From: an uncultured delta proteobacterium | GTDB taxonomy: Bacteria; Desulfobacterota; Syntrophorhabdia; Syntrophorhabdales; WCHB1-27 | NCBI GenBank assembly: GCA_963810935.1 | Contig: CAWEPK010000012.1 | Span: forward strand, 128,001 to 192,000 | DNA: 64,000 nucleotides | Direction: 5' to 3' | Made by a program: the position numbers and the translations under genes | Shown here: positions 41,630 through 61,048 of the stretch, piece after piece | Numbering within the stretch: the first letter of the stretch is position 1 | Layout: each line of letters begins with the position of its first letter | Notes under the pieces: model-generated | The model's input: the letters and a program-made list of their open reading frames with translations, nothing else | The model's database searches: none | What the model was told of the DNA's origin: nothing

Positions 41630-43535
41630 GTGGCAGACCTTTTGTGGCTAATTCCGGCATTGCCGCTTGCAGGTTTCATGGTCCTGCTGTTTTTCGGCCG
41701 AAGGCTGACAGGACGCAGCCCGGCCGTGGTTGGCTGTTTGTCGGTCGGCCTCTCCATGGTCGCCGCCCTTGCGCTTGCGGCGGGGTTCATCAGCAGCGCC
41801 CCGCCCCGTCATGCAATCGCAAAAACGCTCTATACCTGGTTCAACGCAGGCGGGCTCATCACCTCGATCGGGTTTTACTTCGACGGCCTGTCGCTCATGA
41901 TGGTCGTCGTCATCACCGTCGTCGGCTTCCTCATCCATATATATTCTTCCGACTTCATGGCAGCCGATTCGAGCCTGCCGACTGCGGAAGATGGCCAGGG
42001 GTATGCCCGCTTCTTCGCCTACATGAACCTTTTCGTCGGCTCCATGCTCGTCCTCGTCCTCGCGGACAACCTGCTGTTGCTCTATCTCGGATGGGAAGGG
42101 AGTGGGCCTGTGCTCCTACCTTTTAATCGGCTTCTGGTACAAAGACCCCGCGAACGGGCGGGCGGCGGTCAAGGCATTCATGGTGACGCGCGTCGGCGAC
42201 GCATCCCTTGCAGTCGGCCTTTTCATCATCGCATGGAGCTTCAGCACCTTCGACATACAGGAGGCGGCCGCAAGGGCGGCTCACGCCTGGCCGCAAGGCT
42301 CCGCAATCGCTATTGCGGCGGCGGCATTGCTCCTGGGCGGCGCTATCGGCAAGTCCGCCCAGTTGCCGCTCCAGACGTGGCTCCCCGACGCGATGGCAGG
42401 CCCGACGCCCGTCTCCGCCCTGATCCATGCAGCCACGATGGTAACCGCAGGCGTCTATCTGATCGGCAGGACGCACGCTATTTTTGAGCTTGCCCCGCCC
42501 GTCCTTACAGCCGTCGCTGTCATAGGCGCGGCTACGCTTTTGATCGCGGGGGCGAGCGCCCTGGTCCAGCGCGACCTGAAGCGCATCCTCGCTTACTCGA
42601 CGATGAGCCAGATAGGCTATATGTTCTGCGCCCTCGGCGTGGGCGCGTGGTCTGCCGCTTTCTTCCACTTCATGACGCACGCATTTTTCAAGGCCCTTTT
42701 GTTCCTGTCGGCAGGGGTAGTCATAAAAGCGATGGATAACGAGCACGACATATTCAAAATGGGCGGACTCCGGTCACACTTACCCTCTGCATGGCGGGGC
42801 TTTCTCGTCGGTGCGGCGTCCCTTGCCGCGCTCCCGTACGTAACCGCGGGCTTCTACAGCAAGGACTTGATACTTTCCACCCTCCTCGCATCGAAGCAGG
42901 GCGGCATATGGCTCTGGGCCGCGGGGCTTCTCGGGGCGTTTCTGACGTCTATCTACGCCTTCCGCCCGGTCTTCGTCGTCTTCTTCGGAGAGGGACCGGG
43001 GCGCAAAACGGGGCGGGCAGGCCCGTTGATGGCTGCGCCCCTTTTCGTGCTGTCGATCTTTGCCATCGGGGCAGGGTGGCTCCTGCCGAACGGCTTTGCC
43101 GGGCCTTTCCTTTCCGGCCTCTTCGGCGCACTCCCCACGGGCGCGGCCGAAGAAAAAGGCGTGGGTCTTCTCGCTACGCTTGCGCCGCAGGTCGTTGTCG
43201 TCGCAGGCATCGTGCTTGCCGGGATGCTCTATCTCGCCCTGCCTCGGACAAGGAAGGCCCTCACCGGCAGCCCGGCGGGCGCGGCTGCCAACCGCTTCCT
43301 GTTTTCCGGCTGGGGCTTCGACAGGCTTTACGGCGTGCTTTTCGTCGCCCCTTTCATTTGGGCGGCGCGGATAAACAGGTCGGACATCATCGACCTGCCC
43401 TTCCGCGTCGTGGGCCTCATCGCTGAGTTCGCATCGCGCGGCCTCTCCCTTACCCAGTCGGGAAAGGTCCGCTGGTACGCCGCCGCAGTCGCCCTGGGCG
43501 GCGCGGTCTTTCTGGGACTGGCGGTGTTCCTGTGA
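41630..43535 (+). CDS. nuoL: NADH-quinone oxidoreductase subunit L (apparent frameshift near 42100)
   Basis: RFFAYMNLF, GWEG/VGLCSYLLIGFW, GKSAQLPLQTWLPDAMAGPTPVSALIHAATMV, THAFFKALLF. Confidence 0.92.
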
Positions 43536-45021
43536 TCCTCGTCGCCATCATCTTCGTCCCCATTGCAGCGGGCCTTGCCGCCTGGCTCTCCGAGCGCATA
43601 AGCAGCCGGGCGCCCAGAGCGGTTTGCCTCTTCGGCTTCATAGTCGACTTCGCCCTCGTCGCATGGTTGTGGGCCGATGCCCCGCATGCGAGCGCCGCAG
43701 GCCCGTGGCTCGCGACGTTCCGGGCAGCGTGGCACCCCCTCCCTGCCGTGAGCTTCTACCTGGGGGCGGACGGGATCAGCCTCGTCCTCCTTGCCCTTAC
43801 GGCATTTCTGGGCTGCATCGCGACTGCCGCCTCGTGGAACGAGATAACCGAAAGGACAGGCTTCTTCCATTTATGCCTTTCGTGGACGGTCGCAGGCGTC
43901 GCTGCCGTTTTCTGCGCCCTCGATCTTTTCCTTTTCTATTTCGTCTGGGAGCTCGATGCTCGTGCCGATGTATTTCCTTATTGCCCTGTGGGGACACGAA
44001 GACCGCTTCCGGGCCGCAGTCAAATTCTTCATCTTCACGCAGGTGAGCGGCCTCCTCATGCTGGCAGCGATCTTCGGCCTCTATTTCAGCCACGCAAGCG
44101 CGGGCGGGACGCCGACCTTCGACTACCAGGCGCTTTTCGCAACGCCGCTCGCCCCATCCCTCGCGCTCCTTAATACAGGCAGGCTTCCTTTCAGCCTTTC
44201 TCGTGAAGCTCCCCGCCTTCCCGTTCCACACGTGGCTGCCCGACGCGCACACGCAGGCCCCGACGGCAGGCAGCGTCGTCCTCGCGGGCCTGCTTTTAAA
44301 AACAGGCGCGTACGGCATCATCCGATTTTCCGTGCCGCTGTTCGCCCAGGCAGGCGGGCAGCCGGCGTTCCTGCTCGCTGTGCTCGGCGTAGCAGGCATA
44401 CTATACGGCGCGCTCCTCGCTTTGGGGCAGACCGACATGAAGCGTCTCGTCGCCTACACGAGCGTAAGCCACATGGGGTTCGTACTTACGGGCATTGCCG
44501 TGGGGAACGAAATCGCCTTCCAGGGCGTGATGATACAGATCGTCTCCCACGGCCTCTCCACGGGCGCCTTGTTCGTCATGGCGGGCCTGCTCCAGGAGCG
44601 CCTGAAGACGCGCGACATGGAGCGCATGGGCGGCTTCTGGACAGACGCGCCGCGCATGGGCGGCATGGCGATGTTCTTTGCCCTTGCCTCGATGGGCCTG
44701 CCGGGCATCGGCAACTTCCTGGGCGAGTTCATGGTCGTCCTCGGCGCGTATAAAGTGAGCCCGGCCCTTGCCGCCGTGGCATCCGTCGGGTTCATATTCT
44801 CGACTGCCTATTCCCTGCGCCTCGTCCACCGGGTCTTCTTAGGCGAGCACAAGGAGGCGCAGCGGGTCTCCGACCTTTCGGCGCGCGAGACGGCCGTAAT
44901 GGTGCTCATGCTCCTTCCGCTTTTATGGCTCGGCCTCGCTCCGCAGGCGTTCATAGACAAAGTGAAAGTCGGAGGGACAGTGCAGACTGACGTTCGGCCG
45001 CCGCAGAAGGTGGCACGATGA
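43532..45021 (+). CDS. nuoM: NADH-quinone oxidoreductase subunit M (apparent frameshifts near 43954 and 44180)
   Basis: DGIS, DLFLFYFVWE, VKLP.FPFHTWLPDAH.QAPTAGS, LLKTGAYG, KRLVAYTSVSHMG. Confidence 0.9.
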
Positions 45022-46441
45022 GCCTCCTGCCCGTCCTGCCGATGGGGGTGCTCGTCTTTGGCTTGGCCCTGGCTATGATCGGCGTTGCCGTGCGGCGGAG
45101 TCACGCGGCGACGTTCGGCATCACCCTCGCGGCAATCATCGCGTCGGGCGTATCCGCCGCCGGCCTTGCCTCGTCCGTCCCCATGCAGGGCGGCCCGCTA
45201 TTCTTCGCAGACGGGTTCGCCCTGTTCTACGCGGGCCTGGTGCTTATCGCGGGCGCGTGCGTTGCTATCCTTGCCAGGGGCTACCTGAAAGGCCGCGCGG
45301 TCAGGCCCGAAGAATTCTATATGCTGCTTCTGGGCGCATTGACCGGGGCCTTAGCGCTCATTTTCTCCTGCCATTTCGCCTCGTTCTTTTTGGGCCTGGA
45401 GGTGCTCTCCGTCTCCCTTTACTGCCTTATCGCGTACCCGCGCTCGGATGCGCGCCAGACGGAAGGGGCGATCAAGTACCTGGTGCTCTCGGGTGCGTCG
45501 TCGGCCCTTCTGCTTTACGGCATGGCCATCGTCTACGGGCTGACCGGGGCGATGGGGTTCTCAGCCGTGTTTCAGGCGCTTGCAGGCTTAAAACACGGGC
45601 AGGCCGCAGTCTTCGCAGGGACTGCCTTCATCGTCACAGGGGTCGGCTTCAAGCTCGGCGTTGTGCCGTTCCACATGTGGACGCCCGACGTATATGAGGG
45701 CGCGCCCGCGCCGGTGACCGCCTTTATCGCGACGGCATCGAAAGGCGCGGTCTTCGCCATCGTCATGCGATTTTTCTCAGGCGGCGCGCTCTTCGGGGCA
45801 CCGTACCTGTTCGCACTCTTTTCCATCGTCGCGGTCGCGTCGATGCTCGCCGGGAACCTCCTCGCCCTCTTCCAGACGAACATAAAGCGCCTCCTCGCCT
45901 ACTCGTCGATTGCCCATTTCGGCTACCTGCTGATCGCGTTCCTCTCTGCCGGCCCGTACAGGATAACGGCAGTCACGTTCTACCTCGTCGCCTATTTCGT
46001 GACAATGCTGGGCGCATTCAGCGTGATGACCGCGTTGTCGGGCAAAGAAAGGGACGCGGACAGGATCGAGGATTACGAAGGCCTTTTCTACACCCGCCCA
46101 TGGCTGGCAGGCGCGTTTGCGTTCCAGTTGCTGTCGCTTGCAGGGCATGCCGCTGACTGCAGGTTTCATTGCGAAGATATACATAGTGGCTGCGGGGGTA
46201 AATTCCGCGCTTGCGGCTACTGGTGGCAGCGTTGATCGCAGGCAGCGGGATAAGCCTGTTCTATTACCTACGGGTAATCGTGGCCCTATTCCGCAAACCG
46301 GCAGCCGCCCCATACGCGCCGCCGGGGCGACTTGGCGCGCGGATCATGACTGCGGCCTTGTTCGTCCTCCTTGTCTGGTGGGGGATATTTCCCGGTCCGG
46401 TGTTATATGTGATAGGTCTTATAAAACCGATTGTGCCGTAA
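45018..46441 (+). CDS. nuoN: NADH-quinone oxidoreductase subunit N (apparent frameshifts near 46144 and 46211)
   Basis: EGAIKY, FKLGVVPFHMWTPDVYEGAP, QTNIKRLLAYSSIAHFGY; both indels are absent from the duplicate at 53799. Confidence 0.92.
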
Positions 46442-46449
46442 CGATGTCA

Positions 46450-46496
46450 ATTACATCTCACCCGCAGTTGCCGCAATTGGCCCCGGTCCAATTGCG
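46450..46496. repeat. Repeat A copy 1 (ATTACATCTCACCCGC..GCAATTGG-loop-CCAATTGC)
   Basis: Near-identical to 53744-53797 and 58105-58159. Confidence 0.9.
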
Positions 46497-46606
46497 AAAG
46501 CAGACGCTCGCAATCATTTGCAGGGGCCGGCAGGCCCCTGATCTTTACCGGACCCTCAAGACCACGCGCCAACGGTTTAGACGCGCTTTCCCTGGTTCGC
46601 TCTACT

Positions 46607-52800: not shown

Positions 52801-53350
52801 GGATGTAATCCAGGTCAAGGGTAATCCCTATTACGGCTATTAGCTTATTCGCCGTCTGCTTCACCGGGTATCCGAAGGTAATGATGGGTCTTTTCACTAT
52901 GCGGGCCATTGCGTATTCACCGGGCGAAAACATCCCGGTACGGGCTGCCTTTTGAAAGAATGTCCGGTCAGCCAGCGACACCTTCCCCTCAGTGGGTATT
53001 GCCGATGCCCGGACGAGACCGGATTTGTCGCAGACGATGATATTGGCATACTGAGGATTCTTTCTCAAAAGCTCAGAAAGAAGGGGAGTGGCGGTAACGG
53101 GATTTAGGGACCGTATCGGGGAAAGCAAAGAAAGTGCGGTTGCCAGTTGCTCCGCACCCGCGGCTATGGCCTGCTGCTGACCGGCGACATCATTGACGAA
53201 CTTCAGACACTCAGCCTTGCCATCGGCTATCGCTTCGTGCCGCTCGGCTATTCCTGAGTAGACGATCAGGCCTATGGACGGCACCGCCAATACGGCGATT
53301 AAAATTGCTAAATGTGCGCGTATGGGCCACGAGAAGAACCCTTTTCTCAT
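49880..53350 (-). CDS. Hybrid sensor histidine kinase (Cache-like periplasmic domain, HAMP, 3 PAS, HisKA, HATPase, REC)
   Basis: Two TM segments, GELGEVARAFDSM HAMP, AGGIAHDFNNML, FEPFFTTK..GSGMGL, VVDDE..LTDHVMP. Confidence 0.92.
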   Translation of the reverse strand: MRKGFFSWPIRAHLAILIAVLAVPSIGLIVYSGIAERHEAIADGKAECLKFVNDVAGQQQAIAAGAEQLATALSLLSPIRSLNPVTATPLLSELLRKNPQYANIIVCDKSGLVRASAIPTEGKVSLADRTFFQKAARTGMFSPGEYAMARIVKRPIITFGYPVKQTANKLIAVIGITLDLDYIRHMFEHLNLPPGSLFALLDDQGTILMRSLNDPLSGKLIGGRDIRQDLFTRMREGADEGTYEAIGNDEKPRLAAYKKLRLPNESEPYLYIRSSIPLASAISKANITMFSNLAVFVSLFIIGLFLAWLIGSRLIVNPATALKKAAGRLAAGVDNVNVASIVKGGELGEVARAFDSMAERLIQEKAALRASEQRWATTLSSIGDAVIATDVEGKITFMNAVAEGLTGWTLQEAAARPVTEVFSIINEQTRNQVENPVTKVLREGMTVGLANHTVLMKKDGSEVPIDDSGAPIKDEAGNTSGVVVIFRDVTERKRAEEALRESEERFKILTQATFEGVAITEQGRFVDGNDQLFSMLGYRREEMVGREVSEFIVPEDRAKVMDNILQGLEVIVEHGMIKRDGQPVTVEAHGKTETHHGRKVRLTALRDITERKRMEEELRRSRNGLEQRVWERTAELEESNERFHTLVELLPEIVFETDLNERYTYANRQAIETFGVTSEKLREGLYIRDLVAEKDYGRIKQNMNRILKGEALPGGEYTVRRNDGSEFPVFIRASRTERNGKVTGVRGIVIDLTESRRAEEERMRLEEQLRQAQKMEALGTLAGGIAHDFNNMLAVIIGNAELALDDIGDGSDGADHRIKQILMASQRARDLVKEILAFSRKSQGRRKPFKLGPLVQETANFLRGSLPSMIKIEVDTRSDLDAVLADVSQVQQVIMNLSTNAADAINEDGGLLFMGVSDAVFGEKDPKPDPDMQTGRYVVLTVRDTGAGMPKQVLCRIFEPFFTTKEQGKGSGMGLAVVFGIVKAHNGAITVKSRPGKGTTFKVFFPSHQEAVQEEPIQQAALLKGTERVLVVDDEPAVVEMTSDTLKRLGYQVTTAGSGHEGWEKFEKAPGDFDLVLTDHVMPDLTGMRLAEKMLELRKDMPIILFTGYSETVSPQKAKAAGIAEFLYKPVVARDLAETVSRVLHARDRISAALPE

Positions 53351-53501
53351 GCTCCGGACCCTCCAATCCATCATCCAGGTCGGTGAGCCGAAGATTCTGT
53401 GAAGTATAATAGATATTAGTGTTTATCTTGGAAACTACAAGCCCCCATCCGTTGCCGCTCGTAATGGCGCAGAGAGACCTGATGCGAGAAAACCGACCCA
53501 A

Positions 53502-53583
53502 GAAGTACACCTTTCGCCGCTTTTCTCTATGAAATATCAGCCTTACACGGCAGGACGCGACGAGGCAACATGAGCGCCCCGCG
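53502..53583. repeat. Repeat B copy 1 (about 82 bp)
   Basis: GAAGTACACCTTTCGC..TTCTCTATGAAATATCAGCCTTAC.CGGCAGGACGCGACGAGGCAAC.TGAGCGCCCC recurs at 57885-57966. Confidence 0.9.
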
Positions 53584-53601
53584 CTCGTTATTCCCCTCCT
53601 C

Positions 53602-53682
53602 CGTCACCCTGGCGGGAGCCGGGGTCCAGGGTTGTCTCTGCGTCACCTGAAGTGCCGGATGCCGGCTTTCGCCGGCATGACG
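53602..53682. repeat. REP/REPIN-like inverted doublet
   Basis: CGTCACCCTGGCGGGAGCCGGGGTCCAG ... CCGGATGCCGGCTTTCGCCGGCATGACG, resembling GTCAT-type REP doublets. Confidence 0.6.
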
Positions 53683-53743
53683 CAAGAAGAATAGGGCCAG
53701 GGGGGAGCGGATCGCTCTAACGCCTTTCAGCCCGAAGTCAATG

Positions 53744-53797
53744 ATTACATCTCACCCGCGGTTGCCGCAATTGGCCCTCGGCCCAATTGCGGCCGTG
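53744..53797. repeat. Repeat A copy 2, fused directly to the nuoN 3' duplicate
   Basis: ATTACATCTCACCCGCGGTTGCCGCAATTGGCCCTCGGCCCAATTGCGGCCGTG. Confidence 0.9.
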
Positions 53798-53798
53798 A

Positions 53799-54233
53799 AT
53801 GCTGGGCGCATTCAGCGTGATGACCGCACTGTCGGGCAAAGAAAGGGACGCGGACAGGATAGAGGATTACGAAGGCCTTTTCTACACCCGCCCGTGGCTC
53901 GCAGGCGCGTTCGCGTTCCAGTTGCTGTCGCTTGCGGGAATGCCGCTGACTGCGGGGTTCATCGCGAAGATATACATAGTGGCTGCCGGTGTAGATTCCG
54001 CCCTGCGGCTGCTGGTGGCAGCGCTGATCGCAGGCAGCGGGATAAGCCTGTTCTATTACCTCCGGGTAATCGCGGCCCTATTCCGCAAGCCGGCAGCAGC
54101 TCCGTATGCGCCGCCGGGGCGCCTGGGTGCGCGGATCATGACTGCGGCCTTGTTCGTCCTCCTTGTCTGGTGGGGGATATTTCCAGGGCCGGTGCTGTAT
54201 GTGATAGGTCTTATAAAGCCTATTGTGCCGTAG
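53799..54233 (+). pseudogene. nuoN: Second copy of the nuoN 3' end (144 codons, frame intact)
   Basis: Aligns to 46005-46441; protein identical except N/D and V/A; no RBS. Confidence 0.9.
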
Positions 54234-54400
54234 TGACGTTCCCCCGTCACACGAATCAATGAAAACCCAAAATGCGAACAAAAGACTGACCTAATATAGA
54301 TGGCAGGCTTATTTGTACCGACATTCGGACATTACGGTCCGGTCTGTGCAATCCGCATGTCCTCGTCACTGGAGCATCAGGCCGAGAGGTGTGAATAACA

Positions 54401-55595
54401 TGTAAAAGTCAACCTCTCGCCGGACAGTCAGCCCCTCATTCGGGCATGATGGTCATGCCGCTTGTTCAGCCATCTGAGCCTTTACCTTTTTACCTTCCTC
54501 TATGGTCTCGATAGGCCTCTTTCCCATGTTCCGGTATCCCCGGTGAGGTCTTTCGTTGTTGTAGTAAGCAAGCCAGGTGTCGAGGTCCGCCTGGAGCTCT
54601 TCTAAGGTCAGGTAAAGCTTTGTACGGAACGTCTCCCTGAAGAATTCATCAAGGATCGTACGGTTGAACCGCTCTACAAAGCCGTTGCTCCTTGGATTCG
54701 CCACTTTCGTCCGCCTGTGCTCGATATCGTTAAGCTCCAAGAATATCTGGTAAGGATGGATCATCGGCCTTCCGCAGTACTCTCGCCCGTTGTCTGTAAG
54801 GATATGTTCGACCTTAAGGCCGTGTTCCTCATAGAAGGGCAGTACCTTGTCGTAAAGGATGTCTGCGGCGGTCTCGGGTATCTTCGAGGTGTAGAGCTTC
54901 CCGAAGGCATAGGAACCGTACGTATCGACCACCGCCTGGAGATAGACCCGTCCCACCCCCTTGATGCTTCCAACCATGAAGGTGTCCTGGCTTAAGAGGT
55001 ATCCCGGATACAGGCTCTCAACCTTCCGCTCTCTGAAGCAGGGGTTAGCCTTCTCAATAAGCCTTATCTGCTCTTCCGTCAGATCGATCTGGGCGCCGGA
55101 GCGTTCTTCTTCGAGCTTGAGGATGCGCTTGTATCTTGTCTCCAATCCTTCCCGCATCCAAATGTTCCGTACTGTCGAGGGACTTACCGAGACGCCTTCC
55201 AGCCGGAGCTGATCCGATACCCTCAGTTGGCCCCACGCAGGATGGGCGATGGAGAGGCCGATCACCTTTTCTTTGATTTCAGAGGGCGTCTCGTTCGGAA
55301 AGGACTTCGGTACGGGAGGCCGGTCTATGAGGCCCTGTAATCCCTGTTCCTGGAATGCCCGTTTATACTCGTAGAACTGGCTCCGGCAGACGCCCCGCCT
55401 CCGGCATGCCTCGGAGACGTTCCTCAACCGCTCCGCTAGCTGTAGCAATGTCATCTTCCCCTGTGCTATCTTTGATTCGGCAGTCATGCGTTCCTCCTTG
55501 GGTGGTGTTTTTTGGGCAAAAACATCCTACCCGAAGAGAATGCTGACTGCCAACTGCTTTCTTAGAAAGTGTTCGGGAAGAGGTTAACTTTTACA
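54401..55595 (-). mobile_element. IS481 family insertion sequence, 1195 bp
   Basis: TGT...ACA ends; 26-bp IRs TGTAAAAGTCAACCTCTCGCCGGACA / TGTAAAAGTTAACCTCTTCCCGAACA (22/26); flanking 7-bp direct repeat AATAACA (54394-54400, 55596-55602). Confidence 0.93.
54453..55487 (-). CDS. IS481 family DDE transposase
   Basis: HTH (NVSEACRRRGVCRSQFY), QDTF..KGVGRVYLQ, LTDNGREYCG, NGFVERFNRT, YNNERPHRG. Confidence 0.95.
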   Translation of the reverse strand: MTAESKIAQGKMTLLQLAERLRNVSEACRRRGVCRSQFYEYKRAFQEQGLQGLIDRPPVPKSFPNETPSEIKEKVIGLSIAHPAWGQLRVSDQLRLEGVSVSPSTVRNIWMREGLETRYKRILKLEEERSGAQIDLTEEQIRLIEKANPCFRERKVESLYPGYLLSQDTFMVGSIKGVGRVYLQAVVDTYGSYAFGKLYTSKIPETAADILYDKVLPFYEEHGLKVEHILTDNGREYCGRPMIHPYQIFLELNDIEHRRTKVANPRSNGFVERFNRTILDEFFRETFRTKLYLTLEELQADLDTWLAYYNNERPHRGYRNMGKRPIETIEEGKKVKAQMAEQAA

Positions 55596-55618
55596 AATAA
55601 CACATTAGCGCCGAAAGA

Positions 55619-55680
55619 TGATAATGCGGGCGTCACCCGGAGCCGGCTGCTTCGCGCGCGGGTGCACGCGATGGTTGGGC
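55619..55680 (-). other. Integron attC-like site (R' degenerate)
   Basis: Minus strand R'' GCCCAAC -5- L'' CGTGCACC -23- L' GGTGACG -5- R' ATTATCA; one extra base at position 4 of L''; lies downstream of the adjacent gene. Confidence 0.65.
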
Positions 55681-55794
55681 AATCATAGTCTCCCCGCTTC
55701 TCTCGGCGGCCCTTCACGAGAATTTGATAATTCAATGGGCGCCCCTCACTCCCTACTCACTTCCTACCCTCCGCAAATAGCTTAGATTCCGAAG

Positions 55795-57727
55795 TTATTG
55801 GCCAGAGAGGATTTCAAGAACTTTTCTTAGGCATATAACGAATACTTTATCTTGGTTTTCCGTCATCAAATGCGTAACGCCGTGATATTCTCTACGATTC
55901 ACCTGTGCCGCTTCTGTAATGTCAATGATCCCAATGCCCTCCGCGACGTGCTTTGAACCAATCTCCCAGCAAACCAACCATTTGATATCTTGAAGTCTTT
56001 TGTATCCGCTCCGCACATCCCTTACCAGACCATCCGTGTCGTATTTGAATTCTAAAAAGCAGCGGTTAGGAGAAACAGCTTTGCCGTCCCTAAACTTATC
56101 TTGTGCAATCCCAAGCCGATTAGTCGTGTGATGGTACGTAGTTGTGGCATCTGCTCCCAATGCAAACCTGCCTACCCCATCATAAGTTCTTGAAATATGA
56201 GTTGTAAACACTTCATATCCTTTGAGTTTGCCTGTTCCCAAAAGGTTAAAGAATAGTGCAACCACATCTTGCTCTTCAGACGGAATTTTCTTTAGGCTAA
56301 CCCAACTCACACCTATGTCAGGTTTTGCGATAGCATTGTCCTTCATTGCGTCCAAATCAGCTTCTTGGCCCTCATCAAACGGACCAGGGCTCGGCTTAAG
56401 ACAATCATCTTCGATAGTAAACTTCGTCCTTTGAATCGCATTTGCAAAGAAATTTCCGAATTCTCCAATCTCTTCCGGCAGGCTTTTTCTCCCCACGTCG
56501 CTTTTTAGTGGCCCGCATGCTCAGTAAAACAAAGAATCTGCTAAAGTCACCAGACCTGAACGTAAAATCAATTCGCTTCTGCTCACCTATCTTCTGGGTT
56601 TTAGTCGCAAAAACTATACCGTGATTCAGTTGCGCATCCCTCTCGGGTCCCCAAATTTGGTTGTTTCTATCCTGCCAGAATTCCGAGCCGTAGGTAAAAC
56701 ATACATAAGCCTCGGGTTTGTGCACATTCAGGATTCTCGATAGCCTCTCGCGCTTTACTTGCCGCAAATATGACACTGTTTCCATTCTTCTTGTCACTAA
56801 CTCACTCACCTGATCGTATGTAAATGTCTCCCATAGAACATCCATGTCACGCTGAGCTTCAGGAAGACGTCCTCTCGCATCACGACTCAATGACGTTAAC
56901 CTTATGTTGGCCTCAGTTGCCAGGTGTGGATAAAGGTATCCTATTTTCATAAGTGCCGACTGAGGATTTCCCGTCTTATCAACCACCGTCAAAGTTGCTC
57001 TGACCGCTTTAAAGAAAGTATCGTTGGCATCAAAGTCAACATATCCCAACGCCGTATGAAGCCGCAAAATAGCTTCCCATTGAGATAAATCCTCACCCTG
57101 TTCCGACAACACCTTCATATTAGTCTCATTGTCGAACCAAATCGAAACAACGGTTCCGTGATCCGCTGGCGCCTCCGGATGGCACGCCATAGGATTTACC
57201 TTCGGCATAGGTAATAATACAATTTCCTTCCGGCACCATTTCAATGCATCGCGTAGCTCCCCAGATGTGAGTTCACCCGTGTCTTGAGCCACAGTGCTCA
57301 CACAAATTCTATTCGATCCGTATGACAAGAAAGTCGAACCAACCCCCTTCTCGCCCCTCTGCCTGTCCTCAGAATCAGCCTTCAAGGTAGCATAGGGAGT
57401 GAAAAAGTATTTCAGCACCACGCTTTTGGGCATCCCCAATCCGTTATCCACAACTGTGAAGCTGTTCTCTTTGAGATCGACTATTACTCTTATTGAAGGA
57501 GTATAGTCCGCACTCGCCCCTTCTGCCTCTGCCTTCCTGAATGCCCTCTCACACGCATCCATTGCATTTTGAACGGACTCATAAAAGTGGTCGAATTGGT
57601 GATGATAACTACTAATTATTTCGGCTACTTTATTTCTCATTAATTCCGCTGCATATCTATCTCCTTCCCCCTCTTCCTCAATTACTTGCAGAGGATTAAA
57701 GGCTTCCGTTAACGAATTTTCAGCCAT
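55795..57727 (-). CDS. GHKL (Hsp90/MORC-like) ATPase fused to C-terminal PD-(D/E)XK-like nuclease, about 643 aa (apparent +1 frameshift near 56510)
   Basis: ESVQNAMDA, DNGLGM, GEKGVG, HGT GHKL motifs; C-terminal EQDVVALF..YD..LEFKY..LVCWE; removing one base joins the ORFs via LKSDVGRKSL; AT-richer than flanks. Confidence 0.75.
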
Positions 57728-57884
57728 TACCTTCCCCCCTTTCAAGGCTTTCTGTTTCCTTTAACATACTATACTACTCGCTTTTCCCTTGCCCTTCCCG
57801 AATAGCTTATTTCCCCCATTCCAGCAATCATTACCGATTGTAACACTTGCAATCGGCTCGGTCGAGGAAAATCTATCCTTTCAG

Positions 57885-57966
57885 GAAGTACACCTTTCGC
57901 ACTCTTCTCTATGAAATATCAGCCTTACGCGGCAGGACGCGACGAGGCAACGTGAGCGCCCCCGCG
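57885..57966. repeat. Repeat B copy 2
   Basis: Near-identical to 53502-53583. Confidence 0.9.
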
Positions 57967-58104
57967 TTGCGTTACGAACGATCCACAAGAGGCATAGAGT
58001 ATCGGAAGTAAAAAATGACTGAACCGTTTTTGGAAGTAAAACGTGTCAAAAGCGGTCAGTCTTTAGTCCGCCCCACACGTAAATAAGCCGAATAGCAGCC
58101 TTGC

Positions 58105-58159
58105 GATTATATCTCACCCGCAGTTGCAGCAATTGGCCCGCGGTCCAATTGCTGCCGTG
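58105..58159. repeat. Repeat A copy 3
   Basis: GATTATATCTCACCCGCAGTTGCAGCAATTGGCCCGCGGTCCAATTGCTGCCGTG. Confidence 0.9.
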
Positions 58160-58167
58160 GTCGGAGG

Positions 58168-58291
58168 AGCCGCATGGAGGATGCTTCATATGCGGATGCA
58201 ATGGGAGCCGTGGCGGCCGGAGATCGTACATTCGTACATCGGAGGCCCCACGGCGAGCAGGGCGCCGCAGAGGGAGCATCCTTCATGCGGC
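58168..58291. repeat. Long imperfect hairpin element with GTAC-N4-GTAC centre
   Basis: GCCGCATGGAGGATGCT pairs with AGCATCCTTCATGCGGC; inner CCGTGG/CCACGG. Confidence 0.55.
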
Positions 58292-58370
58292 GAGTCCAAA
58301 CCTTGCCACACCATCCGCCCTTGCCTTTTCACCTCACACCACCTCGGGTTCCTGACACGCACACCCCTAC

Positions 58371-59239
58371 TTACCTCGCTATCACATACACCGCCGTCGC
58401 CTCCGTCCACTCTGATGGCGTCCAGCCTGCCTAGCCTTTTTACCAGGTCGCTTATCATGCCGGTTTTCGATGCGTCGAATACTTCGTACTTGCCTTCCTG
58501 AAAACCCAAGGGGACGAGGTCTTCCTTTTTCAGGGTTGCTATCACCTTGATCTTTTCCTCGACCGTGGCCGCCTTCGTGCCGGGGAGCCTGCGCGCGACC
58601 AGCTTTACGGGGCTGCCCGCTGGTGGGAACTCGCGTGCTTCGTTGGCTAAGACCCGGTTGTCGGGGTGAGCGAAATTGGGCAGGAGCACGGTCACGGAGC
58701 CGTCGGCAGCTACGGAAAAAATGTAGATGTAGCAGTTCCTCGTCGGCTGGTAAACGATGCGCGCAGATTCGCCCTCGCGCAGGTCCGCCTTCGCCATGGC
58801 CACGTTCAGGGCAAACCCCGCGCGGTGCGGCCGGACGGGCTCTACGAGTACCTTGAGGTGTACCTTGTAGACCCACCTGTCGCTGCCGTCCCACCCCTGC
58901 CGCACGGGTATTATGCTTGCCGCCCTCCCCTGCACGGAGGCGTAGATGAGGTCTTCCGCCAGTTGGCCGTTGGAGACAAGGACATGCGATTTAACGAAGA
59001 TGCCCCGTGCCTGCTCGATGGCTTTTGCAACGGCCTTCCGTTTGGCCGTCTCCATTACTTCCTTGGGCGTCTCGACGTCGCCTAAGGTCGCCTCCCCTTC
59101 CGCCTCCACCCAGACCGGCGCATCTGCCGGCGCAGGCGCGGGACCGGCGGCCAGGCATGCCCCCGGCATGGCCCACAAGCACATAAGTGCGGCCGCGAGG
59201 CTGACGGCTGGAAAAAGGATGCACTTTTATGCCGCGCAT
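58371..59239 (-). CDS. Exported protein with FlgT/LPP20-like N-domain and DUF4384-like C-domain (apparent frameshifts near 59226 and 58416)
   Basis: Signal peptide restored by removing one A; WVEAEGEA..AKAIEQA; GESARIVY..CYIYIFSVAADGSVTVLLPN; corrected end SEWTEATAVYVIAR*. Confidence 0.65.
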
Positions 59240-59242
59240 GCC

Positions 59243-61048
59243 TCACCTCGCAAGGACGAAGCGCCCCTTGATGCGCTCGACGGGCGGCATCAGGCCGGGC
59301 GTCTGATCGACGTTCTGCCTTTTCGCCTCGTCCTGCACAAGGGGTCTGATATATTCGTAGATATCGCCCATGCTCTTCCTGCCTTCTCTGATGGCCCTTA
59401 AGAAATAATAGGTCAGGATACCGTGCTCCCTCTCGTCCGCGGAGGCGGAGATCTGGCTGCCCGTGGTGGCGGAGAGGACCGCCAGTCCCGGCGGCAAAGA
59501 AGGCGCGTCAGCCATTAATACGAGGGGCCGTGTCCCTTTAGCCACGACGCTCCTGCCGCCCGAGCCTGTGAAACAGGCGTCGAGCACCACGATCGTCTCC
59601 CTCGCGCGCACCTTCCCCAGCATTTCGTAAAGCCTGCTCAGGGGATAACCCGTGTCCTGCAGATAGGACGGGTCCCCGTCGTAAGGCAGCAGGTAAGCTG
59701 TCCCGCTGGCAGGGTCGGGCGCGCCGTGGCCCGAATAGTAGAAAAATACCCTGCTCTCTTTTTTCACCATGTTGGGGAGCATATGCTCGACGCACTTCTG
59801 GATGCCGCTGCGCGTCGCCTCGTCATCTTTAAGGAATTCTATGTTCCTAGGGGCAAAGCCGAGCGCCTCTATGTATGCCTTGACCAGCCTCGCGTCGTTG
59901 TAAGAGTAATCCGACTTGGGAATGCCCCTGTGGTATTGCTCTATGCCGACGATAATGGCCACGTCCAGCGGCCCGAAGACCTTCTGTTCCCTGCGCAGCG
60001 CAGGCAGGAGGTCGATATTGAACCCGTCGAAGTTCCTGACTGCGGCTTGCCTGGGGGTCTCCTTCGGCATGACCCTGGTCACGCTCATCGCCTGCGCCTC
60101 TTCGTTCAGCACGAGGCTTATGCGCGGCTTCAGGGAGAAGCGCGGCCTCTCCTCGTCGACGGCGAAGGAGACAGGGAGCAGGCCGGGGCCGTCGTAGCGG
60201 CGCGTGACGTTCAGGGAGAAGGCGGCCTTTTTCGACTCACCGGGGTTCAGGCTGCCGAGCAGTACCTTCTCATCGCCGAGGATCGCCACGCTTTTTTTCG
60301 CCGATTCGATCCGGCCCGTGACGCCCCTGGCAGGGCCGCCGCCCGAATTACGCACGGTCAAAATGACCGTCACTTCCTTACCTTTCGTGATGATCCGCCT
60401 GCCGTCAACGTCGAGGATCTCGACCATCGAGACTACGAGCGCAGGCGGTGCGAGCGGGCCTGTTCTGAAGGAGACAGCCGCAGGGGGTGAATCGAACCCG
60501 CCGTCCTCCCGGAGGACCGTGCGCAGCAGCACCTCCTGGCTCTGGACGCGCTCCGAGGCCGCGATGGGAACGCGCAGGAACCTTTCTTCTCCCGGCCCAA
60601 GCGTGCCTATCGCATATTCCCGCTCGAAGGTGACGCCCGAGACGCTGCGGGGCTTCCCCGCCCTGTCGATCGTGTCGAGCAGCAGCCTGACGTCGTGCGC
60701 CTCGCCTTGTCCGTTATTCCGCGCCTTCAATGCAAGGGCGCCCTGCTCCTCCGCGTCGAGTATATTGTTGCCTGACGGCTCCGTAAAAAGCAGGGAGGTT
60801 ACAGAAAGCCGGGGATAGGACGACGCAGTTTTCGGGCCTTCGGCAGGCAGGGTTTGCGCCCTGTTCCACGGCACCTGCCAGGTCTGCACCTGGGCGAGCC
60901 GCAGGGGCGCTACGTCAATGTTTAAACCGATATCGGGGTTGGGGGAAACATAGCCGGGCTCCGTCGCAGACATGGCGACAGCGTGGGGGCCGATCCCCGG
61001 ACACAAAAACAGTAGAGCAGCAATCAATACGATTGAGCCATGGCGCAT
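59243..61048 (-). CDS. Exported caspase-family (peptidase C14) protein with Ig/CARDB-like domains
   Basis: Signal peptide; AIIVGIEQY..NDA..ATRSGI, FFYYSGHG and VVLDACFTG catalytic His/Cys; HGILTYY. Confidence 0.85.
   Translation of the reverse strand: MRHGSIVLIAALLFLCPGIGPHAVAMSATEPGYVSPNPDIGLNIDVAPLRLAQVQTWQVPWNRAQTLPAEGPKTASSYPRLSVTSLLFTEPSGNNILDAEEQGALALKARNNGQGEAHDVRLLLDTIDRAGKPRSVSGVTFEREYAIGTLGPGEERFLRVPIAASERVQSQEVLLRTVLREDGGFDSPPAAVSFRTGPLAPPALVVSMVEILDVDGRRIITKGKEVTVILTVRNSGGGPARGVTGRIESAKKSVAILGDEKVLLGSLNPGESKKAAFSLNVTRRYDGPGLLPVSFAVDEERPRFSLKPRISLVLNEEAQAMSVTRVMPKETPRQAAVRNFDGFNIDLLPALRREQKVFGPLDVAIIVGIEQYHRGIPKSDYSYNDARLVKAYIEALGFAPRNIEFLKDDEATRSGIQKCVEHMLPNMVKKESRVFFYYSGHGAPDPASGTAYLLPYDGDPSYLQDTGYPLSRLYEMLGKVRARETIVVLDACFTGSGGRSVVAKGTRPLVLMADAPSLPPGLAVLSATTGSQISASADEREHGILTYYFLRAIREGRKSMGDIYEYIRPLVQDEAKRQNVDQTPGLMPPVERIKGRFVLAR

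Follow-up and report, generated by a model that had tools for sequence, protein, structure and literature searches.

A stand-alone gene of an uncultured delta proteobacterium fusing a GHKL ATPase to a putative nuclease: a candidate single-gene defence against invading DNA

Several single proteins that join a GHKL ATPase to a nuclease of restriction fold have been described. According to the accessible parts of Adams et al. (2025; PMC12137116), VcSduA, a type I-D Shedu protein consisting of a GHKL ATPase and a DUF4263 domain, blocks phage; it needs both its ATPase glutamate and its nuclease lysine, and it protects without killing the cell. GHKL-Shedu fusions are also listed by Gu et al. in the portion of that source available. 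An older example is paraMORC3, presented in the accessible sections of Iyer, Abhiman and Aravind (2008; PMC2292703) as a GHKL-S5 protein with a C-terminal E-D-ExK domain, some members of which stand alone, chiefly in proteobacteria and Bacteroidetes; in Adams et al., paraMORC3 is connected with proteins that bear DUF4263. Tiamat, as far as the preprint text goes (bioRxiv 10.64898/2026.09.30.754977), is a stand-alone anti-phage protein with an Hsp90-like ATPase and a C-terminal PD-(D/E)XK nuclease. Here we analyse a gene of this design in a 64,000-nt stretch of an uncultured delta proteobacterium (assembly GCA_963810935.1, contig CAWEPK010000012.1, positions 128,001 to 192,000; hereafter the window). 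A preliminary description had presented it as an uncharacterised ATPase-nuclease fusion on an attC-type cassette. This overstated its novelty, since stand-alone fusions of GHKL and restriction-fold domains were described in 2008 and phage protection by one such protein was validated in 2025, according to the source portions cited above. The GHKL-nuclease design is already known; the large family to which the gene belongs differs by its own nuclease domain, and lies outside the defence catalogues checked.

The gene occupies the minus strand from an ATG at 57727 to a stop codon ending at 55795, and specifies 643 aa if a one-base break at 56509-56511 is read through. As the preliminary description had it, the gene is AT-rich in a GC-rich background (guanine plus cytosine content (GC) of 45.3%, against 59.6% for the window), and its product carries the GHKL motifs ESVQNAMDA, DNGLGM, GEKGVG and HGT, followed by YDG, LEFKY and LVCWE. 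The first frame (440 aa) contains all the GHKL motifs, and the second contains YDG, LEFKY and LVCWE. That one extra base near 56510 splits a single gene was confirmed: the two frames matched one intact homologue of 641 aa (P0002) at 71% and 77%, with the junction at its residue ~405, and a read contig from run X1 lacked the base at 56509. In Pfam, HATPase_c_3 was the sole domain found, above its cut-off. A PADLOC run on the window gene, one of the checks proposed beforehand, returned no match to any known system, and none of PADLOC 2.0, Pfam and NCBIfam has a name for the gene's family.

Three regions were distinguished in the protein, the limits of the first two being approximate. The GHKL (Bergerat) ATPase domain (57100..57670, minus strand) was recognised by E50, N54, D57, DNGxG, GxKG and HGT, by the HATPase_c_3 match, by invariant alignment columns and by fold matches; GHKL motifs I-IV (ExxxNxxD, DxGxG, GxxGxG, GT) are all there. 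The middle region (56390..57099, minus strand) contains an S5/transducer domain, with the invariant DxGR(K) just past the break, so that the Bergerat fold is followed by an S5/transducer domain with a conserved basic residue, as in GHKL proteins with S5. The C-terminal region (55798..56289, minus strand) is a putative PD-(D/E)XK nuclease with E (56274), YD, ExK, a further K, VCW and GxTH, in which an insertion of ~30 residues separates motifs II and III. Across a set of 131 sequences with identities mostly of 20-30%, the ATPase residues, the DxGR motif and the E-D-ExK tetrad (E483/D514/E557/K559) were invariant (131/131), and the tetrad stood in the right order for PD-(D/E)XK enzymes.

The structural model had a predicted local distance difference test score (pLDDT) of 95.3. 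In a structure search its N-terminal 450 residues matched the Hsp90, MORC and MutL folds, Hsp90 and MORC scoring equal to or above MutL; whole-model searches of the PDB matched the ATPase region only. The C-terminal domain has the predicted order helix-three strands-helix-strand, as in the PD-(D/E)XK core, and in the Atlas it resembled, with a template-modelling (TM) score of ~0.53, domains fused to EVE, HARE-HTH and Mrr_N. Modelled alone from a single sequence, it gave a pLDDT of 34, too poor for use. Profile-profile comparison with sets of SduA_C and NucS-like sequences reached no significance; removing the insertion gave an E of 0.11, equal to that of a negative control, with YD and EFK in register. 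The support for the putative nuclease fold consists of its motifs and predicted topology. The C-terminal domain was also seen in shorter Atlas proteins (clusters of 259 and 370 aa, TM 0.89, some cyanobacterial) with no named ATPase domain; these may be split forms or other fusions.

The family resembles VcSduA in being a single gene of similar size with an N-terminal GHKL domain, a clamp-like middle and a C-terminal PD-(D/E)XK nuclease (putative here); the nuclease lysine is K557 in VcSduA and K559 in P0002. However, the VcSduA nuclease is DUF4263/SduA_C, for which Pfam found a match in none of 33 family members and none of 37 C-terminal parts. When aligned by hhalign with a 20-sequence SduA_C profile, the family reached 0.5% compared with 96.7% for a NucS-like control, and no Q is conserved after its ExK. 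A GHKL protein with an SduA_C-like domain encountered in this analysis (L165) scored only 8.5 bits against the family profile, over the ATP lid, VcSduA itself being outside the comparison. Compared by its published description, in the portion accessible, paraMORC3 shares the layout of GHKL, S5 and restriction-endonuclease fold with E-D-ExK and is likewise partly stand-alone; the family is also common in proteobacteria and Bacteroidetes, but the DUF4263 link drawn for paraMORC3 in those texts is not shared by it, and the prokaryotic MORC motif of the S5 domain (GhXhhpXXRhl), sought with one regular expression, was found in 0/131 sequences. Tiamat, on the preprint text available, also stands alone and joins an Hsp90-like ATPase to a C-terminal PD-(D/E)XK nuclease (putative in the family), but it is far longer than the 640-680 aa of the family proteins and has DUF3684 and NOV_C/DUF3883; among 33 family members, two or three gave weak TmtA matches (best E 2e-4) and none matched NOV_C.

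The family comprises 292 representatives at E≤1e-30, and ~2,000 Atlas members in bacteria and archaea. The 41 protein matches, mostly of 624-669 aa, came from Bacillus, Priestia, Dehalococcoidia and metagenomes, and the overall spread includes Bacillus, Vibrio, Aeromonas, Bacteroidota, archaea, plasmids and four viral contigs; matches of the window's own clade to viral contigs were short and confined to ATPase motifs. Among culturable bacteria, Bacillus, Vibrio natriegens, Pseudomonas and Lactiplantibacillus have intact copies. Samples, partly of incomplete genomes, of the gene's own taxonomic family (21 genomes) and phylum (400 genomes) yielded no copy; no relatives were seen in the phage records searched, nor did a DNA search of E. 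coli genomes, with one enterobacterial homologue as query, show any. At 74 of 78 loci the GC of the gene was below that of its flanks. The gene is real and was acquired recently. No paper on its family emerged from literature searches (DefensePredictor and a modularity-network preprint being searched by term); the supplementary lists for Tiamat and Shedu may contain members.

Gene neighbourhoods were examined at 89 loci carrying a family gene, five of them from the window's own clade (L001, L003-L006) and most from a branch ~25% identical to it. No partner gene recurred, the commonest neighbour clusters being integrases (11/89), cytosine methylases (10/89) and Vsr (6), and no methylase, helicase or antitoxin adjoins the window gene, whose neighbours are an insertion sequence (IS) and DUF4384 and caspase-like genes; the stand-alone character previously claimed was thus borne out. 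PADLOC was run on 421 open reading frames (ORFs, cut to 450 aa) within 3.5 kb of the gene at 70 of these loci, the other 19 being near-duplicate, short, partial or viral, and matches were classed by eye, generic ABC ATPases and helix-turn-helix (HTH) proteins going uncounted. A clear defence or restriction-modification (RM) gene (Gabija, Hachiman, Wadjet, DISARM, Mza, Iet or type II RM) was present at 20 of the 70 loci, and a borderline one at six more. In contrast, 17 control loci (110 ORFs) yielded none, or one if a UvrD helicase is counted. The corresponding Fisher p values (0.009-0.06) overstate the significance, since kin are not independent and the control came from one phylum; an enrichment of defence genes near the family is suggested, not proven. 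The picture of a fused, mobile single gene often found near defence genes agrees with what had been expected of it. Beside two close homologues (L004, 3700-7278, and L003, downstream of 2029) tRNA-like fragments were read by eye, ARAGORN having found none, and L004 also holds an integrase and a type II restriction gene, a context pointing to integrative islands.

These results make it fairly probable that the gene specifies a horizontally acquired single-gene nuclease directed against invading DNA (phage or plasmid), similar to VcSduA, in which a dimeric ATP-gated clamp would load on DNA and license its own putative nuclease. What was observed directly is the fusion, the conserved catalytic-type residues, the GHKL and S5 fold, the lack of a conserved partner and the mobility. 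By analogy with the GHKL family, the protein would form a dimeric clamp with DNA entering the S5 cavity; ATP binding would shut the N-terminal gate, the R/K of DxGRK completing the site, and gate closure or hydrolysis would license the C-terminal E-D-ExK centre to cut. Loading would be restricted to some feature of incoming DNA, so that self would probably be spared without a cognate methylase. The trigger may well be free ends or an unusual DNA structure, ranked over modified bases by analogy to Shedu; modified bases are possible, the EVE, HARE-HTH and Mrr_N structural neighbours being the sole hint of them, a phage protein provoking abortive killing is rather unlikely, and some other trigger is quite improbable. 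We hold more doubtfully the wider proposal of a widespread single-gene defence family, absent from the catalogues, whose nuclease domain has relatives elsewhere that are fused to small modification readers (EVE, HARE-HTH, Mrr_N), an Hsp90/MORC-like clamp taking the place of those readers here. On this view the protein would act as an ATP-gated restriction enzyme that recognises modified or structurally unusual phage DNA through its clamp, and would have arisen independently of GHKL-Shedu and Tiamat, as a third convergent GHKL-nuclease fusion.

Several points weigh against a VcSduA-like defence role. Neither Pfam nor PDB sequences, the latter including a profile search, gave a match to the C-terminal nuclease domain; profile tests linked it to neither Shedu nor NucS-like domains, though those two matched each other, and its Atlas TM reached just ~0.53. 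Counting borderline cases as positive, 44 of the 70 loci have no defence neighbour, and the comparison depends on classification by eye, on a control that is small, single-phylum and not taxon-matched, and on loci mostly ~25% identical to the window's clade. The open frame is supported by one read contig of depth 4.8 and one loose end, from a single study, and the anti-phage activity is itself predicted from sequence and analogy. If protective, the family would add a large group with no name in PADLOC 2.0, Pfam or NCBIfam, and at ~645 aa a compact model for studying how a GHKL clamp controls nuclease action and distinguishes foreign DNA from self when no methylase is present, a question common to VcSduA and Tiamat. 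The concept itself is not new, and the gene is a good candidate for testing, no surprise.

Other explanations were considered. The protein might serve a cytosine-methylase system (RM of MORC/paraMORC type) as its restriction or accessory subunit, stand-alone copies using an unlinked methylase or being remnants. A cytosine methylase lies within 8 kb at 10 of the 89 loci (Vsr at 6); in L028 and L068 the methylase immediately follows the family gene in the same direction, and the accessible text of Iyer et al. (PMC2292703) gives a methylase or RM context for related GHKL families. This is nevertheless unlikely: 79 of the 89 loci have no such methylase in the DNA fetched, and none lies beside the window gene; several methylase loci own other systems (Mza in L035 and L082, DISARM in L068), and orientation varies. 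A mobile repair or recombination enzyme with no defence role, combining a MutL-like clamp with a MutH/Vsr/EndoMS-like nuclease, is quite unlikely, given the sporadic spread, low GC and island location, which are unlike those of core repair genes, the absence of a recurrent MutS-like partner cluster, and the Hsp90 and MORC scores, which equal or exceed that of MutL. The window copy could also be a genuine pseudogene whose cargo slot is decaying, whatever the function of the family, as the adjoining IS, the degenerate attC and the thin read support for an open frame might indicate. Reads holding the stretch came from four soil runs of one study, and the source sample may be their origin. In the sole contig spanning the frameshift (56509..56511, no strand; run X1, 656 nt), the base at 56509 is missing and the one at 56511 is different, so that the frame stays open; 11 nt of a loose end in run X3 agree with it. 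The remaining listed contig pieces over the gene are identical to the window, none showing its version of the break, and homologues are intact. Since the X1 contig is open and frame breaks relative to the related genome G401 also occur in nuoN, a housekeeping gene of the window, the break is likely a consensus or assembly error, as the preliminary description had supposed. With all conserved residues kept as well, a pseudogene is very unlikely and the living strain probably has an intact copy. The nuo operon (window 42031-46460) shows ~24 non-triplet indels relative to the related genome G402; one or both assemblies are rich in indel errors, and split genes there therefore call for read checks. 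At four other family loci (L008, L051, L067, L083) the gene is split into two or three ORFs.

A separate question from function is whether an integron integrase mobilises the gene as a working cassette, its family being a cassette-borne defence family, which is quite improbable. The attC-geometry site said to lie ~115 nt downstream was located 114 nt past the stop (55619..55680, minus strand), with the boxes and spacers claimed: R'' is GCCCAAC, the spacers are of 5 nt, and the L boxes pair 7/7 with one extra base. The R' box, however, is ATTATCA, not GTTRRRY, with ATT in place of GTT, and pairs with R'' at 2/7 positions, the base lying outside the listed read contigs; moreover, the folding of the strand is not more stable than that of shuffled sequences (z +1.4 and -0.2). 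A relaxed attC scan was positive in 15 of 1500 random 420-nt windows, and a strict genome-wide scan gave 2 matches compared with 9-11 in shuffled sequence. The site closely follows the attC sites of four real arrays, even at bases left free in the search pattern; in one such array, 79 and 138 nt separate stop codons from attC sites, and solitary cassettes (SALINs) are common according to the preprint text available (bioRxiv 10.1101/2022.09.11.507474). The locus resembles a SALIN, as outlined there, in having a gene followed by one attC-like site with no integrase or array nearby, but the triplet at the crossover departs from GWT, and the site therefore seems inactive. The exact attC pattern was absent from 61 related genomes, and no core site complementary to R'' was found upstream of the gene. 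No integron integrase exceeded the cut-off (TIGR02249, best 66.5 bits against 265) and no attC array was found in the neighbourhood or the genome, absences that are not certain because the genome is 93% complete. None of 84 homologue loci, the closest included, has an attC-like site within 400 nt downstream. The site is best read as a decayed, solitary, degenerate member of the real attC family, and a cassette may at some time have carried the gene; the family as a whole is not cassette-borne, and the integron framing is incidental. A second decayed attC-like site in genome G000 (L020, L168) ends in the same 25-nt junction (C7:84866-84890), GCATTATCATnTTTnnGCGnTAATG, as window 55603-55627, with crossover ATT, and lies behind a pair of genes for an MTaX1-HNH nuclease and an N6/N4 methylase, beside small toxin-antitoxin-like genes. 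This junction, a motif defined from those two copies, occurs only twice in the genome and in none of 21 family genomes; a common donor or a common target may account for it. A third solitary attC-like site (G000 C7:331424-331486; L019), with an intact GTTAGAC, is surrounded by unknown genes of lower GC and one with a deaminase domain.

The gene lies in a variable cargo slot (54240..58100, no strand) between the nuoN 3' end and a dispersed repeat. In the window the slot holds the IS, the attC-like site and the gene; in G402 it is filled by different AT-rich genes along with a TPR protein, and in G401 it is empty, nuoN joining the DUF4384 gene directly. The IS, outside the proposed system (54401..55595, minus strand), has an rve/HTH transposase, 26-nt terminal inverted repeats and a 7-nt target duplication (AATAACA), and is presumably IS481-like. 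An imperfect direct repeat of ~40 nt, with the core TAAGCTATT, flanks the gene (55740-55790 and 57766-57815) and may be due to chance or be an insertion scar. A weak possible promoter, TCGACC-17-TACAAT with TG (57837..57865, minus strand), falls within a segment repeated at four other places in the genome; the pattern scan gave 6 sites where 3.3 ± 2.0 were expected, and none of the listed runs holding the gene's stretch is an RNA data set. Rfam gave no match in 53000-59300. The DUF4384 gene and a CARDB/caspase-domain gene (58186-61048) are kept beside nuoN in G401 and G402; they were ruled out as partners, since relatives without the gene keep them. A palindromic intergenic repeat of ~210 nt (58090-58300; partial copies at 46449-46503 and 53743-53797), with no Rfam match, has about 20 copies in G000 and numerous ones in G401 and G402, and borders both cargo blocks. 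The nuoN 3' end is duplicated (46004-46447 and 53798-54239) around a 7-kb block, in G402 as well but not in G401; we take the genes of this block to encode a lipoprotein, a USP-like protein, a fructose-bisphosphatase-like protein and a hybrid kinase.
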